A stretch of 64,000 bases of DNA, taken from assembly GCA_964392445.1 (NCBI GenBank), contig CAYMPD010000004.1:26089-90088 (forward strand), in the 5' to 3' direction. The first letter of the stretch is position 1. The number at the start of each line of letters is the position of its first letter. This document shows, piece after piece, positions 29,041 to 41,049 of the stretch. Source of the stretch: an uncultured archaeon. GTDB taxonomy: Archaea; Aenigmatarchaeota; Aenigmatarchaeia; CG10238-14. The notes beneath the pieces were generated by a model. That model did no database searches. It saw nothing but the letters and a program-made list of their open reading frames with translations, and was not told the origin of the DNA. Position numbers and translations under genes: made by a program.

Positions 29041-29111
29041 TCTGATAATTTACTAATTAATATCCTTTAAAGAACAATTACTTATGTAAAAACTAGGAAG
29101 AGTTGAGAATA

Positions 29112-29666
29112 ATGACAAATTTTAACATTAAAATCGAAAATATCGTTGCTACGGCCCCTTTAGGTGTAAGAATATCCCTTGAATCGTTAGTTGAATATTT
29201 AGAGGGAAGTGAATACGAGCCTGAACAGTTTCCCGGCTTAGTCTATAGGGTAAAAGACCCCAAATCTGCAACACTAATCTTCTCAACCGGTAAAATTGTG
29301 TGTACTGGCGCAAGAAATATTGAAGATGTTACCACTGTTATTAAAAAAGTTGTTAAAGTGTTGAAAGAAAGTGGAATTGCAGATCCTAAAGGTTACAAGA
29401 TTGAGGTTCAGAACATCGTCGCTTCAGCAAGGCTACCAGCAAGGTTGGACCTGGATAAAATTGTATTTGAGGTAGAAAATTCTGAGTACGAACCAAACCA
29501 ATTTCCCGGCTTAGTCTATAGGGTAAAAGACCCAAAGACCACATTGTTATTGTTTGGTTCAGGTAAAATCATCTGTACTGGTGCAAGAAAGATAAAAGAA
29601 GTGGAATACGCTATAGAAATCATGTTTAAGAAATTGAAGAGTATAGGCGCACTTAGAAAGGATTGA
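29112..29666 (+). CDS. tbp: TATA-box binding protein
   Basis: Two NIVA...YEPxQFPGLVYR...LxFxxGKIxCTGA repeats. Confidence 0.96.
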   Translation: MTNFNIKIENIVATAPLGVRISLESLVEYLEGSEYEPEQFPGLVYRVKDPKSATLIFSTGKIVCTGARNIEDVTTVIKKVVKVLKESGIADPKGYKIEVQNIVASARLPARLDLDKIVFEVENSEYEPNQFPGLVYRVKDPKTTLLLFGSGKIICTGARKIKEVEYAIEIMFKKLKSIGALRKD

Positions 29667-29669
29667 TGA

Positions 29670-29744
29670 TGGACCCGATGGGATTTGAACCCATGATCTC
29701 CTCGTCCGAAGCGAGGCGCATTATCCAAACTCTGCTACAGGTCC
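29670..29744 (-). tRNA. tRNA-Arg(TCG)
   Basis: GGACCTG/CGGGTCC acceptor stem, CCTCG-CT-TCG-GA-CGAGG anticodon arm, GTTCAAAT T loop. Confidence 0.93.
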
Positions 29745-30130: not shown

Positions 30131-30580
30131 TTAATTGTTCCATTCCAATTTATCTCCTACTTGAATGTTGTTCTCCTTTGAAAAATTCGCATTTACCTCT
30201 AGAACATATTTAGTGGGTTCGTTTGAGGGATAGCTTTCACAAGGATCTGATTCACATGGCTGAATGTTTTGCTTTATTTCTGTTATTGTACCATTTTCCG
30301 CGATAAATATCATGTCCAGAGGTATTAGTGTATTTTTCATCCAGAATGAAACGTTTCGTTCGTTTTCGAAAATGAATAACATACCGGAATTTTGTGGTAA
30401 ACTTTTTCGGTACATCAAACCTTTACTTCTTTCTTTGGGATCATCGGCTATTTCTATATCAATCTCAACTTTCCCACCCTCACTGATTATGGAAAATGGT
30501 ATAACTTTTTTTGTTATACATCCACAGAGAACTACCAATAAGGCGATTATAATCAACTGAGAGAGTTTTTTCAGTTTCAC
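30131..30580 (-). CDS. DUF192 family exported protein
   Basis: EIADDPKERSKGLMYR, GMLF, FWMKNTLIPLDMIF, YVLEVNA. Confidence 0.92.
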   Translation of the reverse strand: MKLKKLSQLIIIALLVVLCGCITKKVIPFSIISEGGKVEIDIEIADDPKERSKGLMYRKSLPQNSGMLFIFENERNVSFWMKNTLIPLDMIFIAENGTITEIKQNIQPCESDPCESYPSNEPTKYVLEVNANFSKENNIQVGDKLEWNN

Positions 30581-30782: not shown

Positions 30783-30873
30783 CGCCCCGAGCAGGACTCG
30801 AACCTGCGGCCTTCTGGTTAACAGCTTCAGCCCTGAATTCAGGTCAACTGCTCTACCACTGAGCTACCGGGGC
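30783..30873 (-). tRNA. tRNA-Asn(GTT) copy 1 with a 19-nt intron at 30/31 (30826-30844)
   Basis: GCCCCGG/TCGGGGC, G73, CT-GTT-AA loop, GTTCGAG T loop; BHB CAGT[TGA]...GCTG[AAG]. Confidence 0.9.
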
Positions 30874-30874
30874 A

Positions 30875-32170
30875 TCAAGGTCTCATTCTACCCATGGTTC
30901 TTGGAAATGGAACTGTTTCACGAATATTTTCAATTCCACAAATCCACATAACAACTCTTTCCAATCCCATACCAAATCCTGAGTGAGGAACCGAACCATA
31001 CTTCCTTAAATCCATATACCATTGGTAATCCTTTTTCTTCAAGCCAAATTCTTTAATTCTCTTTTTCAGTGCTTTTGGATTATCTATTCTTTGACTTCCA
31101 CCTATTATCTCACCATAACCTTCGGGGGCAATAATGTCGTTTGAAAGAGTTAATTTTGGATTTTCAGGATCAGGTTCCATGTAAAAAGCCTTAATTTTTG
31201 TTGGAAATCTGTGGATAATTATCGGTTTTTCAAACTGCTTGGAGATAAATCTTTCTTGAGGAGCACCAAAATCGTCCAGATATTCAATATCAAAATCGTT
31301 CTTTTGTAACAACTCTATGGTCTCATCATAACTTATCCTTGGGAATGGTGGTTCTATTTTTTCGAGTTTTTCGATATCTCTTCCTAGTTCTTTTAATTGT
31401 CTTTTATTCTTCTTTAACACTCCTTTAACTATCGCTGTAATCAATCCTTCTTGAAGTTTAATATTATCTTCAAAGTCATAGAAAGCCATCTCAGGCTCAA
31501 GCATCCAGAATTCGGCCAAATGCTTTGGTGTATGAGACTTTTCCGCGCGGAAAGTAGGACCAAAGCAATAAACCTTTCCTAATGATGGAACAACAGCCTC
31601 ACTGTATAACTGACCACTTTGGGCAAGATAAACCTTACCACCAGGGTATTTTGTTTCAAATAATGTAGTACTTTCCTCACAACAGGTTGGAGTCAATATA
31701 GGAGTGTCTACTCGATAAAAACCTTGAGAATCCAAGAAATCAATCGCACTTTTAATAACGGTTGATCTTATCCTAAGAATAGGTCTTTGACTTGGGCTTC
31801 TTAACCACAAGTGACGGTTACTTAGGAGAAAATCGATTCCATGGTCTTTTTTACCTAGAGGGTAATCGTCTGCTACCTGGAGAACCTTAATATCATTAAT
31901 CTCTATCTCATACCCATCTGGAGCTCTTTCATCTTCTTTTACTTTACCTTCGATTATAACCGAGGATTCTTGTGTTAATTTCTCAGCATCTTCAAACGTT
32001 TTTTTGTCAACATTATCTTTATGGATTGTTGCCTGAATGGTCCCAGACCCGTCTCGGATGATGAAGAATTGAACACCACCACTTGACCTCAGATTCTCTA
32101 CCCATCCACCTAGTTTGACTTTGCCTTTGGTTTTATCATCGAGTATATTTTCTATTTTGTTCAGTTTCAT
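30875..32170 (-). CDS. asnS: Asparaginyl-tRNA synthetase
   Basis: LAQSGQLYSE, FGPTFRAEKS..HLAEFWMLEPE, GEIIGGSQR, YGSVPHSGFGMGLER (AsnRS-type, not the AspRS QSPQLYKQ). Confidence 0.9.
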   Translation of the reverse strand: MKLNKIENILDDKTKGKVKLGGWVENLRSSGGVQFFIIRDGSGTIQATIHKDNVDKKTFEDAEKLTQESSVIIEGKVKEDERAPDGYEIEINDIKVLQVADDYPLGKKDHGIDFLLSNRHLWLRSPSQRPILRIRSTVIKSAIDFLDSQGFYRVDTPILTPTCCEESTTLFETKYPGGKVYLAQSGQLYSEAVVPSLGKVYCFGPTFRAEKSHTPKHLAEFWMLEPEMAFYDFEDNIKLQEGLITAIVKGVLKKNKRQLKELGRDIEKLEKIEPPFPRISYDETIELLQKNDFDIEYLDDFGAPQERFISKQFEKPIIIHRFPTKIKAFYMEPDPENPKLTLSNDIIAPEGYGEIIGGSQRIDNPKALKKRIKEFGLKKKDYQWYMDLRKYGSVPHSGFGMGLERVVMWICGIENIRETVPFPRTMGRMRP

Positions 32171-32252
32171 GATTATCAATTAGAATTTGTTAAGATAAGT
32201 TTAATAAATTTTGGACTAAGATTATTAATAACTGAAAGAGAATAACTTTTTT

Positions 32253-32573
32253 ATGTCAACGAACGGGCTACCTTATGATATTATGAATGCATCAACACGT
32301 GTTAGAACTCATCCAATGATTTATATGATTGAGGAAAAAGAAGATAGAGGTTTAACATATATTGAAGTAATTGTCCCTGGGGGAAGTTATTGTGGTACTG
32401 CAGCAAAATCTAGATTAGCAAAAGGGGACCTTTCTCCAGAAACTAGTAGTCTAGATAGATTAGGAACTAGTGTTTTTCGATATTATCCTAAGACAGCCCA
32501 AGTTCAGAATTTAAGTAATAGGATAACTAGAGTAATGCAAGAAGCAGGATTTTTACTAATCTCTCGGAGTTAA
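32253..32573 (+). CDS. Hypothetical protein (orphan)
   Basis: 106 aa ORF. Confidence 0.55.
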   Translation: MSTNGLPYDIMNASTRVRTHPMIYMIEEKEDRGLTYIEVIVPGGSYCGTAAKSRLAKGDLSPETSSLDRLGTSVFRYYPKTAQVQNLSNRITRVMQEAGFLLISRS

Positions 32574-32641
32574 ATATATGAGACATTTGTATCATTTTTA
32601 CTTGAATACATATTAAAACTCGTCCACCAATTTCAATTAAT

Positions 32642-33124
32642 ATGATTGGAAGGACTAGAAATGGATATGGAGGAACTTTAGGGCCGAGAGAAAGTACAGA
32701 GAAATTTTCATTAGCATGGAGTTTATCTGCTCCTATTTCAAGAGACCAAGATTTTGCGATCTATGAAGTTCCTATGGGGAAAAGTGATGGTTATAGTTCA
32801 CTCGTTAGACAAATGTTTGAAAGAGCAATGGAAGGTGCTCATGTAACAGAACCTTGTAAAGAATTCTTAAGATCTATGTTCTATGTTTCTCTTAGGCAGG
32901 GAGTACCTCCAGTTAGGTGGATACCAGTAGAAAAATTTGGAATAGACCTTTCAAAAGAAAGATATGGGATATTTGGACCCGAAGAGAATTTAGGAGAGAT
33001 TGAAGGAGAGCTAATAAGATTCCACGTTCATATTATAGAAGCTTATAGGATACCAGAATTAAGAGAAAGGGGGATGGAACTTAACAGAAGATGGAGAAGA
33101 GATTGGAATGAAAGATATGGTTGA
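32642..33124 (+). CDS. Hypothetical protein (orphan)
   Basis: 160 aa ORF. Confidence 0.6.
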   Translation: MIGRTRNGYGGTLGPRESTEKFSLAWSLSAPISRDQDFAIYEVPMGKSDGYSSLVRQMFERAMEGAHVTEPCKEFLRSMFYVSLRQGVPPVRWIPVEKFGIDLSKERYGIFGPEENLGEIEGELIRFHVHIIEAYRIPELRERGMELNRRWRRDWNERYG

Positions 33125-33138
33125 AATTAAAAATAAAT

Positions 33139-33414
33139 TTAGTCAATTTCTTGTCTTTGCAGAAGTCTTTGATTGATATCAAAATAACCAACAGTTAAAA
33201 CATATTTCCCATCTAATACCGTTCTGTAATCTTCTACAGTATAATTTCTTTCCTCTACCTCATCTAATAATAATCTTGAAACTTCACCTTCCTTATTTAA
33301 AAAATATGTAACATTCCAGGTATCTAACATTTGTCCTATCCCAGTGTCAGAACAATCCAATACCCCTACTTTATCAAAATGAATTTTTATCATGCTGAAA
33401 TCATTATTAAACAA
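33139..33414 (-). CDS. Hypothetical protein (orphan)
   Basis: 91 aa ORF; start may be ATG 33393. Confidence 0.45.
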   Translation of the reverse strand: MFNNDFSMIKIHFDKVGVLDCSDTGIGQMLDTWNVTYFLNKEGEVSRLLLDEVEERNYTVEDYRTVLDGKYVLTVGYFDINQRLLQRQEID

Positions 33415-33458
33415 AACTTAAATTTCTTACTTTAGACTTAAAAAAGAAAAAAATTAAA

Positions 33459-33553
33459 CGCCTCGGGTCGGACTCGAACCGACGGCCTTCTGGTTAACAG
33501 CTTCAGCCCTGAAAAAGTCAGGTCAACTGCTCTACCTACTGAGCTACCGAGGC
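33459..33553 (-). tRNA. tRNA-Asn(GTT) copy 2 with a 22-nt intron at 30/31 (33502-33523)
   Basis: GCCTCGG/CCGAGGC, G73, GTT anticodon, same BHB as copy 1. Confidence 0.9.
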
Positions 33554-34948
33554 TTGAATAATTTCACGAATTTCTCTTGGGTTTCCCGCTGATTTTATTT
33601 CTTTTAAAACCTGTCCAACCAAAAAATCCAATGCTTTTTCTTCTCCAGATTTATAATCTTTCACTGCCTCTTTGTTTTTCTGTAGTATTTTATCAACTAT
33701 TTTTTTAAGTTCTTGTTTACTCACCATTTTTAGACCTTTTTTACTTAAATATTCTTCGGGGTATTCACCAGTCATGGTTATTTCTTTAATCATTTCTTTT
33801 CCTAATCTTTTCGGGATTTCACCTTTATCCATCATTTCAAGGAATTTAGCAAAGTTTTCTACAGATATTTTGGAGTTTTTAATCCTGATCCCCTGATAAT
33901 TCAAGCACTTCAGAAGATGAGTAATCATCCATTTAGCAATCATCTGGGGATTTTCTAATAATTCACAGCATTCTTCGAAGAATCTAGAAAAATCCTTCCC
34001 TGTGTAAACTATCACTTTGGCTTGATAATCTGATAAATCATACTTTTCCTGGTACCTTTCCACTAAATGATCAGGTAATTCGGGCAGAGTGGTCTTTATT
34101 CCTTGTTTCCATTCATTATTAATTTCGATTTTAGTCAGGTCTGGCTCAAAAATGTACCCATAATCCTCTTCCATCTCCTTTGTTCTCAGAGTTTTAGTTA
34201 TTCCTTGAGATTCATCAAATCCTCTTGTTTCTCTTTCAACCTTCCCTCCATTTCTAAGTACACTTTTTTGCCTAACAACCTCATAATTCAACGCTTTTTC
34301 AATCTTAGCAAAACCACTCATATTCTTGATTTCAACCCTTTTCCCGCCTTCTATTGATATGTTGACATCTACACGCATAGATCCTTCAAGTGAAGAGTCA
34401 TAAACTCCAAGATATTCAAGCATAGTCGAAAGTTTAGTCAAGAATTCCCTTACCTCTTTCGGGTCTCTAAAATCGGGTTCGGTTACTATCTCACATAAGG
34501 GGGTCCCAGAGCGGTTATAATCGATTAGAACATACTTGGATGTAGTTATGTCTCCACCTACATGAACAAGTTTAGCAGGGTCTTCCTCCAAGTGAATCCT
34601 AGTAATGTTAATTTTTTTCTCCTCTCCGTTTGAGTTAATTTTTAAGTAACCTTTTCTTGCGAGGGGAATTTCAAATTGAGTTATCTGGAAGTTCTTTGCC
34701 ATATCGGGATAAAGATAGGATTTTCTAGAGAAGAACATTTTTGTTAATATTTCACAATTTAACGCATGAGCAATTGATATACCATAATCCAACGCTTTCT
34801 TGTTGACTTTTGGTTTTGATCCTGGGAAACCAAGACATATAGGACAGGTAGTAGAGTTAGGTTTAGAGTCTCTATAATCCGTGGAACAGGAGCAAAATAA
34901 CTTTGATTTTGTGTTTAACTGTACATGAATTTCTAATCCTATTTTCAT
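33536..34948 (-). CDS. gatB: Asp/Glu-tRNA amidotransferase subunit B
   Basis: IGLEIHVQL, FSRKSYLYPD, HLEEDPAK, DYNRSGTPLCEIVTEPD, MRVDVNIS, YIFEPDL. Confidence 0.96.
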   Translation of the reverse strand: MKIGLEIHVQLNTKSKLFCSCSTDYRDSKPNSTTCPICLGFPGSKPKVNKKALDYGISIAHALNCEILTKMFFSRKSYLYPDMAKNFQITQFEIPLARKGYLKINSNGEEKKINITRIHLEEDPAKLVHVGGDITTSKYVLIDYNRSGTPLCEIVTEPDFRDPKEVREFLTKLSTMLEYLGVYDSSLEGSMRVDVNISIEGGKRVEIKNMSGFAKIEKALNYEVVRQKSVLRNGGKVERETRGFDESQGITKTLRTKEMEEDYGYIFEPDLTKIEINNEWKQGIKTTLPELPDHLVERYQEKYDLSDYQAKVIVYTGKDFSRFFEECCELLENPQMIAKWMITHLLKCLNYQGIRIKNSKISVENFAKFLEMMDKGEIPKRLGKEMIKEITMTGEYPEEYLSKKGLKMVSKQELKKIVDKILQKNKEAVKDYKSGEEKALDFLVGQVLKEIKSAGNPREIREIIQASVAQ

Positions 34949-36369
34949 TTCATCACAGGTTGGTTTTTGTGGTAATCAGTATTTTGTTCAAATGTGTGAG
35001 CGACCTGAATCATCTTTTTCTCTTGTAAATGATCAGCAATTATATGCATCCCAACTGGTAAACCCTCTGAGAAACCTCCTGGAACAGATATCATCGGAAC
35101 ACCTGCTAAGTTTGGGGGGACTGTTAGAATGTCGAGCATATAGGTCTGAAGTGGGGTCAAATCCTCAATTTCCGAGAATTTTGGTGGTAGAATTGGCATG
35201 GTCGGAGAAACAAGCACATCATACTTTTTGAAAGCTTTCTTGAAGTCTTGAATCACTAGTGTCCTTAATTTCATCGCTTTTAGGTAGAATTGATCCCTAT
35301 ATCCAGCCATTCTAGCATAAGTTCCCATGATTATCCGTCTTTTAGCTTCTTGTCCAAAACCTTCTTTTCTTACCCTTGAGAAATAATCGTTGAAACTCTC
35401 TCCTGTTTTAATTTCATTTTCCAAACCATACCTTAATCCACACAGTTTCGCAAGGTTGGTAGAAGTTTCAGACATAGCAATTATGTAATAACTAGGTAAA
35501 GCAACATCTGTGTGTGGGAGAGAGCATTCTTCGTATTTAGCACCTAAATCTTCTAGAAGTTTAATGTTTTTCCAAATTTTGTTCTTGATTTTTTCGTTTA
35601 CTCCACCGCTGAAATATTCTTTCGGAACCCCAATCTTCATACCTTTGACATCATTTTTCCAGTAATCAGTATAATCCTCTTTTTCAACATCAAGTGAAGT
35701 AGAATCAATGGAATCATGACCAGAAATTACCGAAAATAACAGTGAAGAATCCTCAACTGTTTTACCAATTGTTCCAATCTTATCCAGACTATTAGCATAA
35801 CTAATCAAACCCCATCTAGAAACCGTTCCATAAGTTGGTGTTATCCCCACGGTATTTGTAAAAGATGTAGGACAACTTATAGACCCACCAGTGCTCTCGG
35901 CAATAGCAATATGTGGAAAATCAGAAATACTTGTCAAGCAACCCGCTCCCCCTGAACTTCCTCCACACGTTCGTTCGATATCCCAAGGATTTTTAGGAAA
36001 TCCAAACGGAGTGTTAATGTTAAAAACACCATGACCAAATTGATCCATACTAGTTTTCCCAATTATTACTCCACCCTCTTCTTTAACTCTTCTGGTAACA
36101 TAAGAATCAAACGGAGGAACATATTTATGAAGAATCCTTGAGCCTGCAGTAGTTTTAAGTCCTTTTGTGCATATATTGTCTTTAACTGAGATTGGAAGGC
36201 CGTAAAGCTTCCCTTTTTTAAGCGATTTTACGTCGATTTTTTCGTTTATTGTAACAAATGGTAAATATTTCTCTTGAATTTTTCGAGTTTTTTCCAGAGT
36301 TTTAGTTAAGAAATCCTCTAAATTTAATTCCCCATTCCTGACTTTTGTTAAATACTCTTTCAGTTCCAT
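34945..36369 (-). CDS. gatA: Amidotransferase subunit A
   Basis: SVKDNI, GGSSGG, ESTGGSI (Ser-cisSer-Lys triad), PTYGTVSRWG. Confidence 0.95.
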   Translation of the reverse strand: MELKEYLTKVRNGELNLEDFLTKTLEKTRKIQEKYLPFVTINEKIDVKSLKKGKLYGLPISVKDNICTKGLKTTAGSRILHKYVPPFDSYVTRRVKEEGGVIIGKTSMDQFGHGVFNINTPFGFPKNPWDIERTCGGSSGGAGCLTSISDFPHIAIAESTGGSISCPTSFTNTVGITPTYGTVSRWGLISYANSLDKIGTIGKTVEDSSLLFSVISGHDSIDSTSLDVEKEDYTDYWKNDVKGMKIGVPKEYFSGGVNEKIKNKIWKNIKLLEDLGAKYEECSLPHTDVALPSYYIIAMSETSTNLAKLCGLRYGLENEIKTGESFNDYFSRVRKEGFGQEAKRRIIMGTYARMAGYRDQFYLKAMKLRTLVIQDFKKAFKKYDVLVSPTMPILPPKFSEIEDLTPLQTYMLDILTVPPNLAGVPMISVPGGFSEGLPVGMHIIADHLQEKKMIQVAHTFEQNTDYHKNQPVMK

Positions 36370-36648
36370 CTAAACAGCCCTTGGACCTTTAAAGTAGTCA
36401 TCTTCTTTATTTTCAGCATTTCCTAACGGATCCCAATCCCATTCACAAGTTTCATCTTTCCTCCAAACATTCTTAATTTCCAGAGGCTGAAATGAAGTTT
36501 CAATCTCTTCCGTATCAACTTCTTCTATTTTTCTAAACGCTTCCAGAACATCATCTATCTGTTTTGTAAATTCCTTAACTTCTTCATCTGTCAAATCCAA
36601 CCTAGCTATCTCAGCAACATGTCTAATTACGTCTTCTGATACTACCAT
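36370..36648 (-). CDS. gatC: Amidotransferase subunit C
   Basis: IRHVAEIARLDL...YFKGPR; directly upstream of gatA. Confidence 0.92.
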   Translation of the reverse strand: MVVSEDVIRHVAEIARLDLTDEEVKEFTKQIDDVLEAFRKIEEVDTEEIETSFQPLEIKNVWRKDETCEWDWDPLGNAENKEDDYFKGPRAV

Positions 36649-36828: not shown

Positions 36829-37437
36829 TTGGTATATAGAGTAAGAAAAGCTGAAATGAGTGACTTAGACGCAATTTTATCTCTAGAAAGAAGAAATTTC
36901 GAACCTCTTACTCAGGCTTCTGATAAAACAGTTAGAGAAAGATTTGAGAGTTACCAAGAAGGTTTTTTTATTGCGGAAATTGATTCTAATCCTGTTGGTT
37001 ATATATTTGTTGCACCTTATCGTCATATTTGGGAAGATAGAGAAGAGATAAATTCTCATGAAGATTTAATACTTCCAACTCGGTATATAGATGGTGAATC
37101 AAAGATTATTCAATTTGTTTCAATTGCAGTTCTGAACAAACATAGAGTGACCAATTTAAGTCAAAATGGATACATAGGAGAATCACCTTCACAACTTTTA
37201 TTGACTAGTGCCGTAGAACATGCGATGGAGAGAGGAGCCGATCAAATATATGTTCTTGCTGTTACACCACAGGGAAATAACATTTTAAAAAATAGTGGTT
37301 TTAAGTTATATGAAGAATTTGATATAGATGATGAAGAAATAAGATTATGGGGTTATGATTTAAGAGAAGATGGAGAATCTTTAAAGAGAGGAATTGAAGA
37401 TTATTATGAAAGAAAACTATCTCCTCAACTCGTTTAA
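36829..37437 (+). CDS. GNAT-family N-acetyltransferase
   Basis: VRKAEMSDL, FVSIAV, NILKNSGF. Confidence 0.75.
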   Translation: MVYRVRKAEMSDLDAILSLERRNFEPLTQASDKTVRERFESYQEGFFIAEIDSNPVGYIFVAPYRHIWEDREEINSHEDLILPTRYIDGESKIIQFVSIAVLNKHRVTNLSQNGYIGESPSQLLLTSAVEHAMERGADQIYVLAVTPQGNNILKNSGFKLYEEFDIDDEEIRLWGYDLREDGESLKRGIEDYYERKLSPQLV

Positions 37438-37845
37438 GACAACGTGAGTACTGGTCTTCTCAATACCTTCCATTTGGAATAAGTTATTTATAAAGTTTGA
37501 CAACTCTTCTCTATTTTTAAATCTAGTGACTATTATCATATCCTTATCTCCAGTGATTCCGTATATGGCAAAAACATTTTTGAATTTGATTAGTTTATTA
37601 GCGATTTCAAATTGCTTTTCCCGGTGAGCAACTATTTCTATTATAGCTGGCAAATCATAACCTATCTTCTCATAATTTAAAATGGCTTTATAGTCCCTGA
37701 TAATACCATCTGATTCAAGTTTTTTAATTCTTTCATAAGTGGAGCTTATTGACAAACCGATTTTTTTTGCTATTTTTTTAAGCTTTTGTTTACAGTTTTT
37801 TTCTAACTCCTCTAATATTTCAAGATTTTTTTCATCTAAATCCAT
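37417..37845 (-). CDS. Lrp/AsnC transcriptional regulator
   Basis: LDEKNLEILEEL, RIKKLESDGIIRDY, ITGDKD. Confidence 0.92.
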   Translation of the reverse strand: MDLDEKNLEILEELEKNCKQKLKKIAKKIGLSISSTYERIKKLESDGIIRDYKAILNYEKIGYDLPAIIEIVAHREKQFEIANKLIKFKNVFAIYGITGDKDMIIVTRFKNREELSNFINNLFQMEGIEKTSTHVVLNELRR

Positions 37846-39945: not shown

Positions 39946-41049
39946 TCACCCCTTAATTGGACTCATCTCCCTTAGTTTTCCTACGATTTCTTTTAGTTTT
40001 TTCAAAGTTATATTTATTTGCTCATTTGTAACGTACTTACTCAACCCCATCCTGATAGAACCATGACTTTGCTCTTCTCCGTATCCCATTGATTCTAACA
40101 CATGACTTGATCTTAACCCCTTTCCTGCACAAGCACTTCCAGTTGATAAAATTATTCCTTCCATATCCAGATAAAGAACTATTGCTTCTCCTTCGATAAA
40201 TTTGAATCCAACTGAAAGGACATACGGTAATGAGTTTTCCTCCGGTGTGAAAATGGTGGTACGAGGTATTTTTTTTATTTCTTGGATCAATTTCATTTTT
40301 TGCTTCATCATTATTTCAGTATTTTTATTATCCCATAATTTAACTGCTTCCCCAAACCCGGCTATTCCTGGGATGTCATAAATTCTAGTTCCTTGGATTA
40401 GTGGTTTTAGATTAATATCTTTTTTCTTATATAATGCACCTACTCCTTTAGGACCATGGATCAGATGAGCAGTAATTGTTAACAGGTCAATATTCATTTT
40501 CTCTACATCTATTGGAACTTTTAGGAATGACTGAGAAGCATCGACATGTAGTAGCACTTTTTGATCACGACAAATTTCACCTATTTTTTCTATATTTTGA
40601 ATTGTTCCTACTTCTTGGTTAGCATGTTGGATTGAAATTAGAACTGTGTCTTTTCGGATGGACTTTTTGAATTGATCCAAATTCACGAAACCTTTGTTAT
40701 CAACATCCAAGTATGTTATCGGATAACCCTCCTTTTCCAAGCTTTTACAAGTTTTAAGTATTGATGAATGTTCTATTTTTGTTGTTATTATATGACCTTG
40801 TTTTACCCCTCTTAACACTTGATTATTAGTTTCAGATTGTCCAGATGTGAATGTTATTTCTTCTGGTTTGGAGTTTATTTTCTCTGCAATTATTTTTCGT
40901 GTTTTTTCTATGACTTTTCTTGAGGACATCGTGAATGATGGAGAATAATCTGATATTGCTACCCCATATTGTTCTATCTGATATTTTTTCATACTTTTAA
41001 CTACTTTTTCATCCATTTTTGTGGTTGTGGTGTTATCTAGATATATCAT
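39946..41049 (-). CDS. iscS: IscS/NifS-like cysteine desulfurase homolog lacking the PLP lysine
   Basis: YLDNTTTT, IEHSS, HVDASQ, AHLIHGPKGVG, STGSAC. Confidence 0.88.
   Translation of the reverse strand: MIYLDNTTTTKMDEKVVKSMKKYQIEQYGVAISDYSPSFTMSSRKVIEKTRKIIAEKINSKPEEITFTSGQSETNNQVLRGVKQGHIITTKIEHSSILKTCKSLEKEGYPITYLDVDNKGFVNLDQFKKSIRKDTVLISIQHANQEVGTIQNIEKIGEICRDQKVLLHVDASQSFLKVPIDVEKMNIDLLTITAHLIHGPKGVGALYKKKDINLKPLIQGTRIYDIPGIAGFGEAVKLWDNKNTEIMMKQKMKLIQEIKKIPRTTIFTPEENSLPYVLSVGFKFIEGEAIVLYLDMEGIILSTGSACAGKGLRSSHVLESMGYGEEQSHGSIRMGLSKYVTNEQINITLKKLKEIVGKLREMSPIKG

Follow-up and report, generated by a model that had tools for sequence, protein, structure and literature searches.

Why should a single archaeon encode two routes to Asn-tRNA(Asn), and why should the genes of each route be directly followed by a tRNA-Asn gene of their own? 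The question is raised by a locus of an uncultured member of the Aenigmatarchaeota, contained in a stretch of 64,000 nt of contig CAYMPD010000004.1 (positions 26,089 to 90,088). This whole stretch is referred to as the window, and coordinates are window positions unless a contig is named; G000 is the window's genome, and the other G numbers denote Aenigmatarchaeota relatives. The order on the minus strand is gatC-gatA-gatB (the GatCAB amidotransferase), tRNA-Asn(2), a stretch of orphan open reading frames (ORFs), asnS (asparaginyl-tRNA synthetase, AsnRS) and tRNA-Asn(1). A sequence-only reading of the DNA had described this arrangement, and family and Rfam matches confirm it, with each element at the coordinates given there. 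The explanation that we prefer, and hold to be somewhat better than an even bet, is that the locus combines two co-inherited enzyme-plus-tRNA cassettes for Asn-tRNA(Asn), whose specialisation is asymmetric and non-exclusive. The elements concerned are:

36370-36648, minus strand: gatC, 92 aa; TIGR00135, 71 bits (cut-off 47), and Pfam GatC
34945-36369, minus strand: gatA, 474 aa, glutaminase subunit; TIGR00132, 478.4 bits (cut-off 481.1), and Pfam Amidase, 1e-116
33536-34948, minus strand: gatB, 470 aa; NF004012, 596 bits
33459-33553, minus strand: tRNA-Asn(GUU) copy 2, gatB-linked; Rfam tRNA, 49.6 bits
33502-33523, minus strand: intron of tRNA-Asn(2), 22 nt, positions 30/31; bulge-helix-bulge, intron-less orthologues
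30875-32179, minus strand: asnS, AsnRS, 434 aa; NCBIfam asparagine--tRNA ligase NF003037, 541.7 bits (cut-off 414)
30783-30873, minus strand: tRNA-Asn(GUU) copy 1, asnS-linked; Rfam tRNA, 49.4 bits
30826-30844, minus strand: intron of tRNA-Asn(1), 19 nt, positions 30/31; unique splice solution, bulge-helix-bulge

Two routes and the genes that surround them

The three gat genes are full-length, coupled ORFs: gatC and gatA adjoin with zero gap, the gatA stop and the gatB start overlap by 4 nt (ATGA), and GatA carries the amidase signature GGSSGG at residue 136. The match of AsnRS to NF003037 covers residues 5-433, and the protein is distinct from the aspartyl-tRNA synthetase (AspRS) encoded on contig 10. 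Both routes are encoded, as had been proposed, with AsnRS and GatCAB intact. The asnS stop is followed, after the 1-bp gap already seen in the sequence-only reading, by the first nucleotide of tRNA-Asn(1). At the other junction gatB ends inside the tRNA: its five final codons and stop (ASVAQ, stop) are nucleotides 1-18 of tRNA-Asn(2) (33536-33553), and A17 of the tRNA D loop forms part of gatB's TAG stop.

The assembly (1.215 Mb, 34% G+C, 94.9% complete, approximately 45 tRNA genes) contains one archaeal AspRS, which scores 513 bits, above the 'aspS_nondisc' cut-off. GatD (484 bits) and GatE (468 bits combined) are also present. GatE (contig 3, 15343-16782) is a short frame of 484 aa which matches its model only at 2-263 and 397-617; its middle insertion domain seems to be missing. 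No GlnRS was found above the cut-off in the genome, the best model match (311 bits, cut-off 426) being GluRS; AsnA and AsnB were likewise not found above their cut-offs in this 94.9% complete genome. Since GatDE is present and GlnRS is absent, Gln-tRNA would be made by GluRS and GatDE, which would leave GatCAB for Asp-tRNA(Asn); this agrees with the role that had been assigned to it. With no GlnRS, AsnA or AsnB, the de novo supply of Asn probably depends on GatCAB alone.

Relatives appear to solve the supply of Asn in other ways. In G010, G013, G017, G024 and G040 a truncated AsnRS paralogue of approximately 310-335 aa is encoded directly beside asnS, and looks like the archaeal AsnA-type asparagine synthetase; no such paralogue was found in G000 or in the other four genomes of its genus. 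The supply of Asn thus seems to differ by lineage: an AsnA-like enzyme, GatCAB or scavenging.

The two tRNAs and their D loops among relatives

For each tRNA gene, all possible single excisions located between D arm and T arm were enumerated, and exactly one per gene yields a valid cloverleaf with anticodon GUU. The spliced copies have in common the anticodon arm (GUUGG-CUGUUAA-CCAGA), the G73 discriminator, the 5-nt variable loop AGGCC, G1-C72, the T loop UUCGAGU and G49. They differ in the D loop, which is AGUGGUA (7 nt, without position 17) in tRNA-Asn(1) and AGUAGGUA (8 nt, with A17) in tRNA-Asn(2), at pair 4:69 (C-G vs U-A), at pair 7:66 (G-U vs G-C) and in the T stem (GCAGG vs GUCGG). 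The common anticodon arm, variable loop and intron site, and the four differences, had all been read correctly from the letters. Positions 16, 17, 20, 59 and 60 of a tRNA make up the 'variable pocket' at its elbow. No third tRNA-Asn was found in the genome. Its tRNA-Asp, with 11 nt in the D loop, 4 nt in the variable loop and A49, is unlike either tRNA-Asn; G73 and the 5-nt variable loop are known features of archaeal tRNA-Asn (PMC9499178, PMC2330236).

Both introns lie between positions 30 and 31 (19 nt in copy 1, 22 nt in copy 2) and are alike except in the hairpin loop. Archaeal non-canonical tRNA introns are cut at bulge-helix-bulge motifs (PMC4090602, PMC5829648), with a 4-bp helix, two 3-nt bulges and the cut after the second bulge nucleotide, and both introns here are ordinary in kind: the bulges are UG/A and AA/G, with the slash at the cut, and the helix pairs positions 25-28 with the 3' part of the intron. 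This central helix covaries in four lineages (CAGU/GCUG, CGGU/ACCG, CAAC/GUUG, CGCC/GGCG), and in intron-less orthologues the sequence joins precisely at the predicted 30/31 junction. As the site is non-canonical, standard tRNA finders miscall both genes. The calls of ARAGORN, Ser(tga) and ???(gact), were rejected: they have neither a bulge-helix-bulge motif nor a long variable arm, and the supposed anticodon lies inside the variable hairpin loop of the intron. Non-canonical introns are present in many tRNAs of the genome, which default tools misannotate. On contig 1, the ARAGORN 'tRNA-Asp' at 40731-40840 has two introns, one of them in the D stem, and is not tRNA-Asp; its acceptor stem and A73 are tRNA-Ile-like, and the possible anticodons are UAU/UAA. 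The ARAGORN 'tRNA-SeC' at 110206-110329 is the real tRNA-Asp(GUC), likewise with two introns.

The two copies also share a derived G42 (CCAGA, compared with CCAAA in relatives), while their acceptor and T stems differ. This shared G42, together with the near-identical introns, suggests partial gene conversion between the copies, in which the A17 difference was retained.

The order-level comparison comprises G000 and 40 relatives of the same order. AsnRS orthologues are found in 25 of these 41 genomes and GatB in 16, mostly as alternatives. The sequence-only reading had called for a survey of the two gene pairs, and both linkages proved to be conserved within the order: the tRNA-Asn start lies 0-66 nt from the asnS stop in 16 of the 25 AsnRS-bearing genomes, and -18 to +69 nt from the gatB stop in 10 of the 16 GatB-bearing ones. 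Because the genome has only approximately 45 tRNA genes in 1.2 Mb, and because both adjacencies recur in relatives, two such adjacencies are far beyond chance. The gatB/tRNA overlap recurs in G033 (-15 nt), and G002 (contig 25, L045) retains a remnant of this overlap; there, an insert of approximately 790 bp, flanked by the 18-nt direct repeat AAAGCTCTGGTAGCTCAG, parts gatB from tRNA-Asn. By eye, the ORF of this insert seems to encode a helix-turn-helix region and a possible PD-(D/E)xK nuclease motif. A second gap, of approximately 1.2 kb, separates gatA and gatB in G002, and the two gaps look like mobile insertions targeting the gatCAB operon. Concerning G007, G015, G018 and G021, which belong to one genus, aspS-gatC-gatA-gatB-tRNA-Asn form one cluster, a complete cassette of the indirect route. 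The AspRS of this cluster shares 44-45% identity with the G000 enzyme, a lower value than for AspRS of other families, which points to two AspRS types in the order. In G042, a candidate second tRNA-Asn on contig 2 proved to be tRNA-Lys, and the genuine gene lies on contig 4.

Whenever a cassette is lost, physical linkage by itself would be enough for the tRNA type to follow the enzyme, which favours the main rival explanation, according to which the copies are redundant: both tRNAs would be interchangeable in both routes, the linkage would be a habit of the lineage, with tRNA-Asn at the operon end, and the sequence differences would be neutral marks of two old paralogues, deleted along with the neighbouring enzyme gene. 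It is also favoured by the anticodon, G73, 5-nt variable loop, G49 and T loop that both tRNAs share, and we regard it as possible, though on the unlikely side. The distribution of D loops bears on it directly. In the order, all asnS-linked tRNA-Asn have a 7-nt D loop, and 16 of the 16 GatB-bearing genomes have a tRNA-Asn with the D loop AGYAGGUR (A17) and the T loop UUCGAGU. Contrary to what redundancy would lead one to expect, the rule holds also for A17-type tRNA-Asn that are not linked to gatB (G032, G012, G038, G027). None of the AsnRS-only genomes of the order has the A17/AGYAGGUR type; their D loops have 7 nt or U17, mostly with A59.

The phylum sample consists of 371 Aenigmatarchaeota genomes, searched with a strict A17 D-arm pattern by which intron-split or variant D arms are missed:

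GatB only: 137 genomes, strict A17 pattern in 77
Both enzymes: 35 genomes, strict A17 pattern in 12
AsnRS only: 136 genomes, strict A17 pattern in 2
Neither enzyme detected: 63 genomes, strict A17 pattern in 13

The pattern is therefore present in 89/172 GatB-bearing genomes, and its presence in merely 2/136 AsnRS-only genomes speaks against redundancy. The 13 matches without either enzyme are mostly in incomplete genomes of GatB-bearing genera. Outside the phylum, 81 genomes were sampled from the order to which a Methanobacteriaceae metagenome-assembled genome (MAG) belongs, and the D arm of tRNA-Asn(2), GCUCAGUAGGUAGAGC, is found in 79 of them, which again disagrees with neutral marks; we take Methanothermobacter thermautotrophicus to be a member of the same family. 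The GatCAB of M. thermautotrophicus uses the D loop, position 49 and the variable loop's length, and the tail domain of GatB touches the D loop (PMC2330236, PMC2811023); such published D-loop recognition by archaeal GatCAB also counts against redundancy, as does the survival of the A17 difference beside a tract that evolves in concert between the copies. Across these genomes, the tRNA type tracks the enzyme: A17 goes with GatB and the 7-nt D loop with asnS.

Both enzymes are found together in the 35 genomes listed above, which belong to many families, and also in G033, where asnS is cut by a contig end. The two routes usually form a single cluster; in at least 16 dual-route genomes asnS and gatB lie within approximately 6 kb of each other, and at least eight genomes have both tRNA-Asn types (G000, G002, G033, G054, G055, G104, G128, G144).

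Several observations weigh against the two-cassette reading. The naive odds ratio of 13 (Fisher test) overstates the association of A17 with GatB, as related genomes are not independent, and of the GatB-only genomes only 56% show A17 by the strict pattern, partly due to introns. D loops of 9 nt occur in G058 and G059, and AGCGUGGUA in a thaumarchaeal genome with GatCAB. The sequence-only reading had listed four differences between the tRNAs and named D-loop and elbow features as discriminators: the D-loop difference follows a rule, A17 accompanying GatB across the 371 genomes, but 4:69, 7:66 and the T stem follow no pattern across relatives, and in this respect they suit redundancy. G016 has both enzymes, and the sole tRNA-Asn type found in it is A17, between gatB and asnS; G086 also has both enzymes, and only the 7-nt type was found. 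Known antideterminants of tRNA-Asp are missing from tRNA-Asn(1), in which the D loop is small, the variable loop has 5 nt and both G49 and a G59 T loop are present, and for this reason GatCAB may accept tRNA-Asn(1) too. The AspRS of G000 has Pro at the position of T. kodakarensis K85, a putative mark of a non-discriminating AspRS, but AsnRS-only kin share this Pro; residues W26/K85 (T. kodakarensis), tried as a specificity test, did not separate GatB-bearing from AsnRS-only genomes of the order. AspRS is thus only a candidate non-discriminating enzyme. Finally, the GatB of G000 and G002 form a long-stemmed pair in a polytomy, outside the main GatB clade of the family, where vertical descent and transfer are indistinguishable.

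G016 and G086 have one tRNA type found in each, as would be expected of redundant copies. The asymmetry between the dual-route genomes points to a GatCAB route that requires or favours A17 and an AsnRS that tolerates this nucleotide, and suggests that dedication need not be strict. The sequence-only reading had gone further and proposed isodecoders dedicated to their pathways, with AsnRS acting only on tRNA-Asn(1) and AspRS/GatCAB only on tRNA-Asn(2), which would allow a switch between scavenging and synthesis. The fusion of each tRNA to one enzyme gene, the dual-route genomes that retain both types and an Lrp/AsnC-type regulator beside gatCAB in G000 and G002 are in its favour. G016 and G086 speak against exclusivity, however; G016 in particular has AsnRS, yet only an A17 tRNA was found in it. 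Moreover, the identity of AsnRS in known systems resides in the anticodon and G73 (PMC9499178), which are the same in both copies, and no AsnRS-repelling feature was identified in tRNA-Asn(2). We consider strict dedication quite unlikely.

The two-cassette reading would work as follows. AspRS would mischarge tRNA-Asn with Asp, and GatCAB would then amidate it, this being the cell's only de novo source of Asn; the AspRS/GatCAB route would depend on, or strongly prefer, the A17-type tRNA-Asn(2). AsnRS would charge free Asn, scavenged or recycled, onto tRNA-Asn(1), and probably onto tRNA-Asn(2) as well, because the anticodon and G73, which AsnRS reads, are common to both. Lacking A17, tRNA-Asn(1) may largely escape the AspRS/GatCAB complex and stay free for direct charging. 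Each tRNA would be made as the final element of its enzyme's transcription unit, and enzyme and tRNA substrate would thereby be supplied and inherited together.

History of the locus and neighbouring features

In all five genomes of the genus, asnS-tRNA-Asn(1) is found in the same synteny, together with the DUF192 gene and tRNA-Arg(UCG); the DUF192 gene is syntenic in G001 and G003. AsnRS orthologues in the family clade are 62-84% identical, and the AsnRS tree follows the family tree, with G001 closest to G000. By contrast with asnS, gatCAB-tRNA-Asn(2) is the variable segment of the locus. It is at the same syntenic position in G000 and G002, and three genomes of the genus have no gatCAB; in G001 the flanks are the same, with approximately 2 kb of other genes instead of gatCAB-tRNA-Asn(2), the orphan ORFs and the Lrp/AsnC gene. 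As gatCAB is syntenic in G000 and G002, and AsnRS pairs G000 with G001, which is without gatCAB, the gene order and trees indicate that the dual state goes back to the ancestor of the genus, with later loss in some members.

This history bears on another explanation, in which the pairing is an accident of gene flux: GatCAB would be a relic or a Glu-tRNA(Gln) enzyme, or asnS a recent islet that arrived with its own tRNA, as the sequence-only reading had suggested as its alternative. The islet is contradicted by the synteny of asnS-tRNA-Asn(1) across the five genomes and by an AsnRS phylogeny that follows the family tree. In favour of such an accident one could cite the GatA score, which is 0.6% under the curated cut-off of TIGR00132 (478.4 vs 481.1), the long stem of the G000/G002 GatB outside the family's main clade and the three genomes of the genus that are without gatCAB. 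All gat ORFs are full length and coupled, however, and the amidase signature is kept; GatD and GatE are available for Gln, and without AsnA/AsnB there is a role for GatCAB to fill. A compositional sign of foreign DNA was looked for at the locus and none was found, and dual-route clusters recur in many families (35/371 genomes). We judge this explanation to be very improbable.

GatB's nearest named relatives are Aenigmatarchaeota MAGs, two of which share the order or class of G000. In the GatB alignment, a 6-residue gap is common to G000 and the aligned archaeal sequences, and the K-M-(E/A) residues seen in the two aligned bacterial sequences are missing from G000 GatB. At the turn by which bacterial GatB reads U1-A72, G000 GatB is 1 residue shorter than that of S. 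aureus, and the Methanobacteriaceae sequence is 3 residues shorter.

The remaining features near the two cassettes are:

37417-37845, minus strand: Lrp/AsnC-family regulator; Pfam AsnC_trans_reg and HTH_24; approximately 770 nt upstream of gatC
33440-33458, minus strand: oligo-T tract (T7 and T6 runs) directly 3' of tRNA-Asn(2); from the sequence
33139-33414, minus strand: orphan ORF C, 91 aa; without Pfam/NCBIfam match
32642-33124, plus strand: orphan ORF B, 160 aa; without family match, GC skew consistent with plus-strand coding
32253-32573, plus strand: orphan ORF A, 106 aa; without Pfam/NCBIfam match

The Lrp/AsnC regulator adjoins gatCAB in G002 too, and no copy was found in G001 at the locus without gatCAB; a homologue of 35% identity lies downstream of asnS in G016. 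It is only a possibility that the regulator belongs to the gatCAB unit, and it could be an amino-acid sensor for the cluster. A more elaborate form of specialisation would combine such Lrp/AsnC sensing with insulated isodecoders, the A17 tRNA being the sole substrate of AspRS/GatCAB and the tRNA with the 7-nt loop the main one of AsnRS, and with a feedback through RNase P. Since the gatB stop lies inside tRNA-Asn(2), cleavage by RNase P would, if the two are co-transcribed, leave the gatB mRNA without a stop codon. Were this so, the release of the tRNA and the synthesis of GatB would compete on one RNA, a built-in feedback between substrate and enzyme. We give this combination little credence.

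Transcription in archaea terminates at oligo-T, and the tract after tRNA-Asn(2) is a possible, candidate archaeal terminator of a gatCAB-tRNA unit. A/T-rich boxes upstream of both tRNAs were rejected as promoters: they lie inside coding sequence and are indistinguishable from codon usage. A sigma-70 promoter scan gave fewer sites than in shuffled sequences and is not meaningful for an archaeon. ORFs A and C have zero tblastn matches in the asnS/gatB loci of seven f1 genomes, and ORF B has no match anywhere in the genomes of the 40 relatives. Downstream of tRNA-Asn(1), tRNA-Arg(UCG) (29670-29744) is flanked by the genes of a TATA-binding protein (29103-29666, plus strand) and the DUF192 protein (30131-30580, minus strand). 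The position of this tRNA downstream of asnS(-tRNA-Asn) is conserved, also in another family of the class (loci of relatives: L015, L018, L019, L022, L185, L186), and in several relatives it has a canonical intron and is called SeC by ARAGORN.

Comparison with known systems

Thermus thermophilus, Deinococcus radiodurans and Bdellovibrio bacteriovorus have both routes to Asn-tRNA(Asn) and no asparagine synthetase, a gene content which has been read as tRNA-dependent Asn synthesis beside an AsnRS that uses free Asn (PMC4206432). As in these bacteria, the genes found here are those of AsnRS, GatCAB and an AspRS, which would have to accept tRNA-Asn, and AsnA/AsnB are missing. Unlike them, the organism is an archaeon, has GatDE for Gln and a GatCAB predicted to serve Asn only; and two tRNA-Asn isodecoders or enzyme-fused tRNA genes are not mentioned for those bacteria in the literature cited here. 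The general statement for archaea is that GatCAB is present where AsnRS is missing (PMC2811023); against this usual either/or picture, AsnRS and GatCAB coexist in approximately one tenth of the sampled Aenigmatarchaeota genomes.

Recognition of tRNA-Asn by archaeal GatCAB, and the co-evolution of the two, have been summarised for M. thermautotrophicus and M. barkeri (PMC2330236, PMC2811023). Substrates of these enzymes are recognisable by a variable loop of 5 nt, by position 49 and by the D loop, and tRNA-Asn(2) has the same D arm as the order of the Methanobacteriaceae MAG. The published work contrasts tRNA-Asn with tRNA-Asp/tRNA-Gln, whereas here two tRNA-Asn are present in one cell, and the difference between their D loops is the single nucleotide 17, which tracks the adjacent enzyme gene.

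Each already known on its own, dual Asn-tRNA routes and the co-evolution between archaeal GatCAB and tRNA-Asn are combined here in one small locus, with two natural variants (with and without A17), each fused to the gene of one route. The locus, one instance of a lineage-wide pattern, offers a natural test of which features of the tRNA elbow are read by archaeal GatCAB or by the AspRS/GatCAB complex, and the pattern suggests which of these DPANN archaea still make Asn and which must scavenge it. Automatic annotation would report the genome as being without tRNA-Asn, because the standard tRNA finder miscalls both genes.

The arrangement can also be compared with pylS-pylT, in which a tRNA gene likewise lies beside the gene of its charging enzyme and is inherited with it as a cassette. 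The pyl cassette adds a new amino acid with an orthogonal tRNA, while both cassettes here lead to the same Asn-tRNA(Asn) and serve the same codons; a further difference from pylS-pylT is that one of the tRNAs here overlaps the coding end of its enzyme gene.

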